Source: a virus. Taken from it: DNA of 64,000 bases. The stretch is from IMG/VR virus record IMGVR_UViG_3300047284_000516, positions 15,895 through 79,894 of that record. One strand, given 5' to 3'. The notes under the pieces are model-generated. The model was not told the DNA's origin and ran no database searches. It worked only from the letters and a program-made list of their open reading frames with translations. Both the position numbers and the translations under genes were made by a program. Positions 61,935-64,000 of the stretch are shown piece after piece. Numbering within the stretch: the first letter of the stretch is position 1; each line of letters begins with the position of its first letter.

Positions 61935-62468
61935 CTAATCTTCTGGATGAAAGGGATCAATCCCCCTTCCCCTTACCCACCCCTCAGGAACATTATCTTT
62001 GAATAACCTCTCCTCACCTGTCAATGGATCATGATACCACTTTAATCCAAGACATGGCTTCCACTTCTTCCTTGCATTACGAATATTCTGCTTACCAATA
62101 CTATCATGAGGTACATTATGATTTCCCTTCCCCTTCATAGTATTACTGATCTTTTGCTTCACCTCTTCACTCCACTTCCTTCCCTTTCTATAGGCAGAGA
62201 CTTTACGAGAGATCTTCATCCTACTCTCAGCAGATAATGGAGCCCTCTTCTTCCTTACCTTGTAATCACGCTCCACACGATCAATAGAATAAGAAACCAT
62301 TAATTGATTAACAACCCCATCCACATTACTATCCTCTCGCACTTGAGTAAGAAGCTCACATGCAGTGAATAACAATTGCTCCCTTAGCTTTAGTATTTCC
62401 CGTTGAGGAAGAGAGGAGATGTATAGCATCCTACCAGAGGAAGTGGACAGCATATAGACGAATTTCAT
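61935..62468 (-). mobile_element. NUMOD3-containing homing-endonuclease-like gene with degenerate GIY-YIG start
   Basis: SAESRMKIS and WSEEVKQKISNTMKG NUMOD3 repeats; WYHDP..G, PEGWVRGR tail; FVY...LYIS N-terminus; antisense. Confidence 0.65.
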
Positions 62469-62494
62469 AGGGTTTACGAGTGACCAAATAGTAG

Positions 62495-62523
62495 TTGACA
62501 ATACAATTATATAGATTGATAAT
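62495..62523 (+). promoter_or_regulatory. Sigma70-type early promoter
   Basis: TTGACA-N17-GATAAT. Confidence 0.6.
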
Positions 62524-62555
62524 ACCATAAAGTAAGATTTGAAAAGGAGTGGAAA

Positions 62556-62831
62556 ATGCCAAAGTTGACGACCCAAAGTTCTTCAAAGTTTAGAGTGACC
62601 GATGACAGTTTAGGAAACCACGCTATAGTCGAGCTTTCCTCGGCATATGAGTCAAATATGTCGTTCGAAGAGTTCAGAAGTATGGCAGTGGCTACTGTGG
62701 AGAGAGGCACTGGTGGGCAGAAGACTAAGAATCAGATTATCACTGCAATGTATAGGGCAGGAACTTCTAGGAAGGATGTGCTGCAGAAGGCAATCAACTT
62801 CATCTTTGGTGGCATGGGACTGCGGGTGTAA
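62556..62831 (+). CDS. Hypothetical early protein
   Basis: SD AAGGAG, upstream promoter. Confidence 0.6.
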   Translation: MPKLTTQSSSKFRVTDDSLGNHAIVELSSAYESNMSFEEFRSMAVATVERGTGGQKTKNQIITAMYRAGTSRKDVLQKAINFIFGGMGLRV

Positions 62832-62832
62832 T

Positions 62833-62905
62833 AAAAAGTCCTGTACAATCAAGCAGATAGCTTTGAGAAGACCTAGTTGACCTTTTCCATGATCTATGCT
62901 AATAT
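62833..62905 (+). promoter_or_regulatory. Early promoter with repeated upstream motif (copy 1)
   Basis: AAAAAGTCCTGTACAATCAAGCAGATAG-N10-ACCT; TTGACC-N17-TAATAT. Confidence 0.65.
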
Positions 62906-62914
62906 GATCAAACT

Positions 62915-63367
62915 ATGAAAACGAAACGAACCATCAAGACTGCAGCTCAACCAACCTATTACTACCTACCCACTCCAAATGGCAAGGGTCTCAGGTCTGT
63001 AACTAAGAAGGTGTATGACCAAGTAATTGCTGGGCAGCTAAAGGCTGCAGCGGAGATGGGAATCAAAATTAAGAAAGGACGTAAAGTGAATACTGCATTT
63101 GATACTCTGATTGATAACACCAAAGCTCTTGAGGCTGTTGCCAAAGTAGATGCTGTTACTGAGGCTGAGAAGGTTGTTGATGGTAAGCGCCGTGGTGTCG
63201 TAACGAAAGCTAAACGCACTGGCACTAAGCTGGATATCGCCATCTCAATCTACCAGTCTACTAACGGAGATCGCAAACAAACGATCGAAGAGATCATGAC
63301 ACGTTGCGGCATGAGCAAAGCAGGTGCAACAACCTACTTCTACAATGCCAAGAAGGCATCTGTATAA
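62915..63367 (+). CDS. Basic hypothetical protein with C-terminal HTH-like segment
   Basis: Lys-rich; I..IM..CGMSKAGATTYFYNAKK. Confidence 0.6.
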   Translation: MKTKRTIKTAAQPTYYYLPTPNGKGLRSVTKKVYDQVIAGQLKAAAEMGIKIKKGRKVNTAFDTLIDNTKALEAVAKVDAVTEAEKVVDGKRRGVVTKAKRTGTKLDIAISIYQSTNGDRKQTIEEIMTRCGMSKAGATTYFYNAKKASV

Positions 63368-63378
63368 AAACCGTCTAG

Positions 63379-63600
63379 AACCTTCTCTATTCGGTTCAAA
63401 ATGATTAGGTAAGGGGAGGTTGCGGATCGTGGCGTGTGAATTGAATTGACAAGCATTTAGCCACCTTCTCGCTCCACCTTTAAACGACAGCAAGGCACGT
63501 CGGGAGACGTTCCGGAAGGAAATTGTCGGGAGACAAGTTCTGATCCTCTGTGCCCCTACCTCATGAAACCGCGTGCGCGCGCGGTATATTTGCCCCCCGC
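63379..63600 (+). ncRNA. GC-rich multi-hairpin non-coding element (RNA or ssDNA structure)
   Basis: Three adjacent GNRA-capped hairpins, long-range stems and an ACCGCG/CGCGGT hairpin; no credible ORF. Confidence 0.55.
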
Positions 63601-63612
63601 AAAACACCGTCA

Positions 63613-63683
63613 AAAAACTCCTGTAAAATCAATCAGATAGAGTTGGCCAAACCTGTTGTTTTTTTCAGAAAAACAGAGATAAT
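63613..63683 (+). promoter_or_regulatory. Early promoter with repeated upstream motif (copy 2)
   Basis: AAAAACTCCTGTAAAATCAATCAGATAG-N10-ACCT; TTGTTT-N16-GATAAT. Confidence 0.6.
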
Positions 63684-63720
63684 GGTTCTCATGATGAAAA
63701 CAAACACAAAGGCAAAGACA

Positions 63721-64000
63721 ATGGTCAAGTACGCAATCTATCAACTCCCCGAAGATCATGCTAACATCCGCGATCTTTACTTCCTCAATGCTCTCGAAAT
63801 TCAAGAGATCAGCGATCAGTTCGAAGTAGTGGCTCGTATCGATGCCCGTAGCCTGGATGATGCTTTCCGGATCGGCAATTTCGTCTGTGAAGAGGATGCA
63901 ACGAAGATCGAAGTGGTTGGCGACATGCGATCGATCTCGACTGGCGACATCATTCATAACCTCGATACGGATGAGACTCATGTGGTGGATCGGTTTGGTT
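63721..64000 (+). CDS. YodL-like protein (3' truncated; missing from ORF track)
   Basis: Open + frame MVKYAIYQL...LDDAFRIGN...MRSISTGDII...VVDRFG; promoter and AAGG SD upstream. Confidence 0.65.
   Translation, partial: MVKYAIYQLPEDHANIRDLYFLNALEIQEISDQFEVVARIDARSLDDAFRIGNFVCEEDATKIEVVGDMRSISTGDIIHNLDTDETHVVDRFG

Follow-up and report, generated by a model that had tools for sequence, protein, structure and literature searches.

The stretch of viral DNA analysed here (the window) comprises the last 64 kb (64,000 nucleotides, nt) of the 79.9-kb linear IMG/VR virus record IMGVR_UViG_3300047284_000516, which is estimated to be 45% complete. The source virus is a T4-like phage; its family-B DNA polymerase is ~50% identical to cyanomyovirus polymerases, and its DNA is present in freshwater metagenomes. 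Close to the end of the contig, a 314-nt gap separates an open reading frame (ORF) of 150 amino acids (62915–63367) from an ORF that starts at ATG 63682/63691 and is still open at the contig end. An earlier note on this DNA had described a GC-rich element with tandem GNRA hairpins in this gap and had listed a novel noncoding RNA among its candidates. The region is indeed GC-rich (0.54 at 63400–63599 versus ~0.39 in most of the preceding 5 kb), and positions 63407–63565 of the plus strand are almost certainly one copy of a widespread, phage-only and uncatalogued structured RNA. The motif is uncatalogued as judged against Rfam 15, and might be among the unnamed entries of a catalogue of 10,006 candidate viral RNAs (PMC10690425). 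Across its family, the fold is conserved, strand-specific and non-coding, and occurs as a single copy at gene or tRNA boundaries.

Architecture of the element

The element was delimited with a covariance model, R1, built from 24 short family members in other phage contigs, and with the minimum free energy (MFE) fold. Its parts are:

63407..63565, +, complete RNA element, assigned to the GGGG-P2-UUAAA-P3-CCCC three-way-junction family (cmsearch with R1, and MFE)
63413..63416, +, 5' strand GGGG of helix P1, pairing with CCCC at 63553–63556 (R1 and pair probabilities)
63417..63479, +, P2, a long irregular arm (A17-U79, G18-C78, G19-C77, U20-A76, then GCGGA/UC.CGC)
63480..63484, +, junction strand J2/3, UUAAA, invariant in the family
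63485..63552, +, P3 arm (C85-G52, G86·U51, bulged A87, C88-G50, A89-U49, G90-C48)
63497..63510, +, hairpin 1, ACGUC-GGGA-GACGU, a GNRA-capped extension of P3 (pair probability, p, 0.93–0.97)
63523..63536, +, hairpin 2, UUGUC-GGGA-GACAA, a second GNRA-capped extension of P3 (p 0.89–0.99)

R1 matches the 64-kb window with 20 bits (E 2e-4) over model positions 1–68 of 68, with a 55-nt insert in each arm, and the match begins 39 nt past the stop codon at 63367. The unconstrained MFE of the window element gives the same helices as the family fold. P1 is lengthened by AGGUA (63407–11) pairing with UACCU (63557–61), and the distal part of P2 is formed by GUGGC/GCCAC (63429–33/63460–64) around a 26-nt loop. 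Both helices had been proposed from the sequence as enclosing stems (the outer one as AGGTAAGGGG/CCCCTACCT, 63407–16/63553–61, the other as GTGGC/GCCAC); they are now seen to be P1 and distal P2 of the conserved family. The 55-nt insert in P3 holds the two GNRA hairpins, which are present exactly as previously described and share the repeated word GTCGGGAGAC (two occurrences, at 63499 and 63525). Pair probabilities are 0.89–1.0 for the outer stem AGGUA-A-GGGG/CCCC-UACCU, for GUGGC/GCCAC and for both GGGA hairpins. Three other helices suggested earlier are not supported: a middle hairpin TTCC-GGAA-GGAA (p = 0.001–0.002), a GGATC/GATCC stem (p = 0.001) and an alternative GGCAC/GTGCC stem (p = 0.002). 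A pseudoknot between the loop of hairpin 2 (GGA, 63529–31) and UCC at 63544–46 could form, but the idea was dropped because other loci with paired hairpins have no such UCC.

Folding energy separates the element only slightly from shuffled sequence. The exact element (63407–63562) has a z-score of −1.98 on the plus strand (9 of 200 shuffles) and −2.24 on the minus strand, and the 222-nt span originally outlined folds no better than shuffles (z −0.58 and −0.78 for plus and minus). Folding energy alone is therefore weak evidence, and it is covariation among relatives that makes the case for structure. In DNA contigs, related strains do not differ over 63368–63620 but have 21 differences in 384 nt of the upstream ORF, a contrast that is only a hint because these are separate short contigs.

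A covarying family of phage RNAs

Relatives were collected from IMG/VR with several patterns (individual loci are cited below by our L numbers). A scan for two GTCGGGAGAC words 8–30 nt apart returned 26 loci, one of which, L020, also holds GGGGGAA...CUUAAACGAC...GCGCCCC. The pattern GGGGRA-N14-44-TTAAACRAC-N5-35-GYGCCCCT yielded 79 viral loci with 57 distinct sequences, where ~13 would be expected by chance (our own estimate from the size of the collection and not a computed result). A further scan in which the 5' half was not fixed gave 35 loci and exposed a subfamily with a 60–110-nt branched insert in P2. The family now totals >70 distinct sequences in IMG/VR, and R1 E-values of relatives range from 1e-9 to 1e-20.

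The syntenic relative is a 156.6-kb phage contig that encodes a homologue of the window's downstream ORF (53% identity). Its corresponding gap follows a homologue of the C-terminus of the upstream ORF and contains two tandem motif units (R1 56 and 51.6 bits), one with a single GUC-GGGA-GAC hairpin and the other with none. The gap beside another homologue of the downstream ORF (56% identity) lacks the unit altogether; the element is therefore an optional insert in this gene slot. Behind the tandem copies of the 156.6-kb relative lies ~360 nt of ORF-free, helix-rich sequence (L045:2630–2990), which may be a longer non-coding RNA unit. It ends in an intrinsic terminator (CCACGG-N5-CGTGG followed by T6), and the next promoter follows directly.

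The family fold is a three-way junction. P1 is GGGG/CCCC; P2 is attached to it directly and starts with a G-C or A-U pair; UUAAA is the sole junction strand; and P3, which abuts the 3' strand of P1, is formed by C-R-(bulged A)-C-M... with ...K-G-Y-G. A core of ~30 nt is nearly invariant, consisting of P1, the first P2 pairs (GA../..UC), UUAAA and the base of P3 (C-R-(A)-C...G-Y-G). Beyond it, both arms accept inserts of 4 to >100 nt.

Among 81 R1 hits (66 distinct), 91.7% of cells are paired as modelled, compared with 42–62% when the partners are slid. Changes on both sides occur in 13 of 17 pairs, and none of 500 shuffles reaches any of these measures. In P2, covariation is seen at each of the 8 modelled pairs. 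At the base of P3, the R-Y pair reads AU in 31 sequences, GC in 20 and GU in 14 and is never mismatched. P1 pairs are GC in 65–66 of 66 sequences, one member having the compensatory AGGA/UCCU, and UUAAA is found in all 65 sequences with a residue there, an invariance partly forced by the search patterns. Since G·U cells outnumber A·C cells by 58 to 18, the fold belongs to the plus strand, and the excess points to RNA. Element lengths are evenly spread modulo 3 and none of the six frames is open in the relative, which shows the element to be non-coding.

The homologue search that the earlier note had proposed as a check has therefore returned a covarying family. Its suggestion of a novel noncoding RNA is supported by the absence of an Rfam match, by the strong covariation among >70 sequences and by the strand-specific fold, co-oriented with neighbouring genes and tRNAs. 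Overall, what that note observed is partly confirmed and what it proposed is partly supported.

The GNRA-capped hairpins

A GNRA-type hairpin is found inside P3 in 21 of 57 members, with loops GGGA (12), GUGA (3), GGGAN (3) and others including GAGA and GCGAA. In eight further members a GUC-GGGA-GAC hairpin stands ≤45 nt upstream of P1; no member has a hairpin at both sites, and 28 have neither. These counts indicate an optional accessory of which a molecule seemingly needs no more than one. What is conserved in it is the type of loop and not GGA. The two GUC-GGGA-GAC hairpins of the window are that copy's version of the optional P3 extension, and the presence of two within one P3 is unusual. 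The internal covariation previously read from them is real in the sense that other phages combine the GUC-GGGA-GAC tip with a wide variety of outer pairs.

Hairpins of this type also occur elsewhere. Paired NN-GUC-GGGA-GAC-N'N' hairpins with compensating outer pairs, 12–25 nt apart, are found at L022:7308–7347, L024:6264–6299, L026:5286–5329 and L031:2655–2691 and, on the minus strand, in L033 and L038, with about eight independent occurrences in all. They stand 3–20 nt ahead of the start codons of large ORFs. To judge from their N-termini and their place behind terminase-sized ORFs, these are putative portal, scaffold or capsid genes. The first hairpin of such pairs often lies within an outer helix with an AAC / AGUA internal loop. 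Two Microbacterium genomes (L189:7683–7714, L204:3301–3332) have two CCC-GUC-GGGA-GAC-GGG hairpins directly before GAGGAG and an ATG, the same architecture as at the phage loci and possibly in prophages. Tandem arrays of long hairpins with the tip GGUC-GGGA-GACC followed by (C)AAC are present in Planctomycetota and in some Chloroflexota, Bacteroidota and Acidobacteriota (L125–L244, e.g. L216, L224, L174); they form a repeat family with many arrays per genome, often opened by GGAGACCUUCGGUC.

Pseudomonas phage LUZ100 carries a single ACGUCGGGAGACGU hairpin between tRNA-Asn and the major capsid gene (OP329100 20970–21069; L246:1529–1628). The hairpin coincides with the annotated terminator T15 and lies ~20 nt ahead of its mapped 3' end, which was detected by ONT-cappable-seq with an efficiency of 74, has no U tract and was not predicted as an intrinsic terminator (PMC10204088). 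A 10-nt identity between the window and LUZ100 (CCCCUACCUC) is seemingly coincidental, since LUZ100 has no UUAAAC core.

Occurrence and genomic context

Exactly one copy is present in 49 of 50 whole viral records, and in complete terminal-repeat genomes the motif is internal (31 kb into 214 kb; 111 kb into 163 kb). An R1 search found no second copy in the rest of the window's own record or in its continuation contig. A search of 185,579 prokaryote genomes (one per species) did not find the commonest sub-pattern, and blastn of the element, of 62800–64000 and of a 57-nt consensus-like member against 50,697 phage records returned no match. No cultured-phage carrier was found via the motif or via neighbour proteins.

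Among the 57 members, all nearby tRNAs are co-oriented with the motif. In ~35 of them the motif starts 2–25 nt past the stop of a same-strand ORF; in 12 a tRNA follows 7–32 nt downstream, some motifs lying between two tRNAs; and in ~20 an ORF starts ≤36 nt downstream. In others a sigma-70-like promoter follows the motif or lies just before it. The upstream ORFs belong to several small lysine-rich families that are unrelated by BLAST and hhalign, so that no conserved partner gene emerges; their proteins have no Pfam or PHROG family, and cultured phages encode no homologue of them. The downstream genes, too, are unrelated to each other, which argues against a riboswitch or operator tied to one gene; this reading was rejected. 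One of these genes, 21 nt downstream of the motif at L020 (minus strand, 2382–2443), begins with MARITSQKAALQIGNQFDMVLIAAARARELRR, a start resembling that of the RNA polymerase omega subunit.

Transcriptional setting of the window copy

The features that flank the element are:

62840..62860 and 63620..63640, +, two copies of the 21-mer CCTGTAMAATCAAKCAGATAG (0 expected)
62877..62905, +, sigma-70-like promoter TTGACC-17-TAATAT with TG before the −10 box (consensus scan)
62915..63367, +, lysine-rich small ORF of 150 amino acids, the upstream neighbour of the element
63402..63412, +, TGA-t-TAG-g-TAA, stops in all three frames, abutting the element (read from the sequence)
63568..63585, +, GC hairpin ACCGCG-UGCGCG-CGCGGU followed by AUAUUU(G) (read from the sequence)

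As judged from the sequence, the promoter at 62877–62905 probably drives both ORF 62915–63367 and the RNA element behind it. Of the two ORFs flanking the gap, only this first one has a sigma-70-like promoter score. Its ATG lies 9 nt past the −10 box (7–9 nt across both small ORFs), so the early mRNAs may be nearly leaderless. The encoded protein matches no Pfam or PHROG family, and its C-terminal ~50 amino acids recur in other phage contigs. Stop-rich, A-rich flanks similar to those of the window copy are found in other family members.

The 21-mer CCTGTAMAATCAAKCAGATAG has a TG-TAnAAT core, lies 16–20 nt upstream of a −35-like hexamer and stands ahead of both small ORFs. The same word precedes the downstream gene in relatives, even where the upstream DNA differs. 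Its second copy (63620–63640) appears to be promoter-associated and would open the next transcription unit (ATG 63682/63691). Between the element and this copy lies the GC hairpin at 63568–63585, which had been noted previously as ACCGCG-N6-CGCGGT and is found as described. It is probably a weak terminator-like stem-loop that ends the unit; a scan of 62500–64000 for intrinsic terminators found no terminator-like site, the hairpin being followed by AUAUUUG and not by a U tract.

Several further observations concern this end of the window. A 25-codon ORF (MKPRARAVYLPPAKHRQKTPVKSIR, 63563–63640, plus strand) begins 7 nt past P1 and extends across the GC hairpin and on into the 21-mer; no Shine-Dalgarno sequence precedes it, and it is unlikely to be a gene. 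The sole minus-strand ORF of >150 amino acids in the window (61935–62576) lies ~800 nt upstream of the element and has a NUMOD3 motif and weak matches to homing endonucleases. IMG/VR contig 3300047284_000539 (25,981 bases; L046) continues the phage genome, as L046:1–127 is 100% identical to the final 127 nt of the window. A further copy of the promoter-region repeat is present at L046:2106–2206.

Comparison with known RNA elements

Rfam 15, searched at gathering thresholds and at E ≤10 and including the hammerhead, twister, pistol, hatchet, hepatitis delta virus (HDV)-like, tRNA, transfer-messenger RNA and C4 families, has no match in the window, at the syntenic relative or at eight other loci. 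ARAGORN reports nothing at the element.

The closest likeness in the core sequence is to coremin (xrRNA-C), a motif of beny-, cucumo- and other RNA viruses. This element consists of GUC-CGAA-GAC-G-UUAAAC-UAC followed by a second hairpin, and it cannot stall Xrn1 or ribosomes without its spacer and loop; Watson-Crick variants (xrRNA-WCC) have loops GGGG, GGCG or GGAG that pair with nucleotides after UUAAA (PMC6546385, PMC10520033, PMC10321173). The family has UUAAAC-R-AC after a helix where coremin has (G)UUAAAC-U-AC, the part of coremin most sensitive to mutation. Compared with the coremin spacer (G)UUAAACUAC, 8 of 9 positions fit and a helix follows, but C-R are paired here with the 3' strand of P3. 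Likenesses beyond the spacer are the GUC/GAC stem of the family's accompanying hairpin, which recalls the first coremin hairpin GUC-CGAA-GAC, the loops starting with GG as in the Watson-Crick variants, the presence of a further hairpin downstream, and a location in untranslated RNA right behind coding regions.

The differences are substantial. In the family, C-R of the UUAAAC-R-AC segment pairs with the 3' G-Y-G strand of P3, with covariation, and the whole is closed by P1; because of this pairing the fold is a closed three-way junction and not an H-type pseudoknot. The P2 loops are variable (AGUA, UCAAUC) and are not YGAD or YGNNAD, while the GUC hairpins have GGGA loops. The rule that defines the first coremin hairpin, 3–5 bp with a YGAD/YGNNAD loop or a loop pairing with spacer nucleotides 18–20, does not describe the family. 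Finally, the carrier is a DNA phage, in which stalling would be a putative function.

Exonuclease-resistant RNAs (xrRNAs) of flaviviruses are built on a three-way junction with the helix order P1, P2 hairpin, junction, P3 hairpin, P1. The phage family has the same helix order and conserved junction nucleotides. It differs in having no sequence likeness, no Rfam match and no demonstrated 5'-end or loop pseudoknot.

Two other comparisons concern phage and bacterial RNAs. As in lambda-type nut sites (boxA plus boxB) and rrn boxB-boxA-boxC leaders, the main subfamily has a boxA-like word followed by a GNRA-type hairpin; the window copy is also placed between a small early gene and a terminator-like hairpin. 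The boxA-like word of the family is, however, partly paired and covaries away, the hairpin is optional and the closing P1 has no counterpart. A nut site has a single-stranded boxA (consensus GCUCUUUA) upstream of the boxB hairpin, an arrangement that is absent here, where CUC is in P2. The family also resembles T4 rnaC/rnaD and YrlA: one small structured RNA is found within or close to the tRNA genes of a phage, its frame is conserved and its inserts are exchangeable, and many members have the word ACAGCA(A/G) after the junction. R1 does not match T4 rnaC or rnaD, YrlA (RF02553) has no match in the element or the other loci, and no Ro60/TROVE gene (PF05731) is present in the window's own record or in any of five related ones, among them a motif carrier that is 91% complete.

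A possible cis-acting role at gene boundaries

Our favoured explanation, which we hold tentatively and at slightly less than even confidence, is that the fold acts in cis as a compact barrier to nucleases or ribosomes and thereby sets a stable end of the RNA or leaves a stable fragment. The RNA would be made as the ribosome-free 3' part of an early transcript that starts at the promoter at 62877–62905, carries ORF 62915–63367 and is predicted to end at the hairpin at 63568–85. The three-frame stops at 63402–63412 that abut the element would keep ribosomes off it. The junction could then act at the gene boundary as a protein-independent roadblock or end-protector, perhaps in the same mode as the hairpin-UUAAAC elements of the coremin type that stop exonucleases and ribosomes. 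It would leave the RNA with a stable end at a defined place, or yield a small, stable RNA fragment where two transcription units meet or where an mRNA gives way to a tRNA array.

A boundary role is suggested because motifs lie 2–25 nt past stop codons, because tRNAs, ORFs or promoters follow, and because three-frame stops precede the window copy. By analogy, UUAAAC-R-AC, the GUC/GAC stem and the GG loops may be counted in its favour as echoes of coremin, as may the LUZ100 hairpin of the same type near the mapped 3' end T15.

Several points weigh against this explanation. Transcription, RNA ends and stability are inferred only, for the window phage and for all family members. A 5'–3' exonuclease is absent from many bacteria, and the host may be among them. 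The motif is single-copy (49 of 50 records). Its topology, that of a three-way junction, departs from the H-type pseudoknot proposed for coremin, the P2 loops depart from YGAD, and coremin with the GNRA loops GGAA or GAAA loses its resistance to Xrn1 (PMC6546385, PMC10520033, PMC10321173). The folding z-score of the window element is only about −2. That GGGG, UUAAAC and GYGCCCC do not vary is in part a product of the search patterns, which is not the case for the covariation in P2 and P3.

Alternative functions

The main rival is a trans-acting small stable RNA, excised by tRNA-processing enzymes from early or tRNA transcripts, whose invariant junction binds a conserved host factor or an unlinked phage factor as a decoy, inhibitor or scaffold and whose arms are displayed cargo. 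Though unlikely in our judgement, this function fits the single-copy rule and the tRNA-array setting better than a cis-acting block does. The single-copy rule holds in the complete 163-kb and 214-kb genomes, and within tRNA arrays the motif has tRNA-like spacing, with 8–14 nt to both neighbours (L049, L075). The core stays invariant across phages with unrelated flanking genes while the arms take inserts from 4 to >100 nt, and the distribution of the GNRA hairpin, in P3 (21) or just upstream (8) and never in both, is what would be expected if it were needed once per molecule. Against it, no partner has been identified, and neither the window's own record nor the 91%-complete motif-bearing relative has a Ro60/TROVE gene. 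The RNA is not tRNA-like according to ARAGORN or Rfam, T4 rnaC and rnaD do not match, and most copies stand directly behind a stop codon and not behind a promoter of their own.

It is rather improbable that the motif is a nut-, put- or rrn-type signal for processive antitermination. Here a boxA-like CUCUUAAACAAC and a boxB-like GNRA hairpin in the nascent RNA would modify RNA polymerase for read-through of Rho-dependent or intrinsic stops into tRNA arrays or early genes. The ACUCUUAAACAAC of the commonest subfamily agrees with E. coli rrn boxA (GCUCUUUAACAAU) at 10 of 13 positions, and GNRA-type hairpins follow this word. The placement after a small early ORF and before a terminator-like hairpin resembles that of nutR between cro and tR1, and motifs often come directly after a promoter or open an untranslated tRNA array. 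However, the CUC of the boxA-like word is paired in P2 and covaries to unrelated sequences such as GCGUAUC and GGGUGGC, half of the members have no GNRA hairpin, and in many members a promoter intervenes between the motif and the next gene. No N-like protein turned up, though none was searched for.

It is more doubtful still that the motif is a new class of small self-cleaving ribozyme, which would part the mRNA from the tRNAs or genes that follow, as hammerhead and HDV-like theta ribozymes do elsewhere in phages. A three-way junction whose arms vary freely, while ~25 nucleotides clustered at the junction itself are near-invariant, would suit a ribozyme, and the known Rfam ribozyme families do not match it. 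The motif adjoins tRNAs, next to which theta ribozymes are known to occur (PMC10879173). Against this, the motif has no candidate cleavage site; new classes are rare, and such conservation is equally typical of RNAs that bind proteins or ligands.

The two GGGA loops of the window copy had suggested a sponge that titrates a CsrA/RsmA-type protein. An RGGA tetraloop on a short stem resembles the CsrA ligand obtained by systematic evolution of ligands by exponential enrichment (SELEX), and the two sites are 26 nt apart. Relatives nevertheless exchange GGGA for GUGA, GAGA or GCGAA or have no hairpin at all (28 of 57), so that the P3 cap is GNRA-type with no conserved GGA. The part that is conserved is the junction core, which has no loop GGA; the third GGA hairpin does not form, leaving only two GGGA loops in the window, and the host may lack CsrA. 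A sponge is accordingly very improbable.

A DNA-level signal (the single-stranded origin, packaging or injection site of the earlier note, or a protein-binding repeat) or a chance GC-rich spacer would account for the local GC richness, for the direct repeats of GTCGGGAGAC and for a minus strand that folds about equally well by energy, but is already largely refuted by compensatory changes that preserve pairing and not sequence, by the one-strand excess of G·U over A·C (58:18), by constant co-orientation with genes and tRNAs, by the internal position in terminal-repeat genomes and by the R1 E-values of relatives.

Implications

Phage genomes thus contain an RNA with a conserved core and no catalogue entry, for which the searches made found no cultured carrier. 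The window copy also serves as a caution: clusters of GNRA hairpins in phage intergenic DNA can decorate larger conserved folds. The minimal form of the RNA is ~50 nt, which makes in vitro tests of folding, self-cleavage, nuclease or ribosome blocking, and protein binding inexpensive.

A bolder proposal, by analogy and in our view improbable, is that the family is the bacterial-virus counterpart of the exoribonuclease- and ribosome-blocking RNAs of eukaryotic viruses, a coremin UUAAAC core rewired into a three-way junction and used once per genome for a protected RNA end; equally, it might be a new class of self-cleaving ribozyme. Either would be a new kind of protein-free RNA device in DNA phages. 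If the UUAAAC junction works like plant-virus coremin, one RNA trick would be common to eukaryotic RNA viruses and DNA phages, and the element would offer a compact insulator or stabiliser part for synthetic operons. If it instead binds a host factor, the family would point to a new target manipulated by many large aquatic and soil phages.

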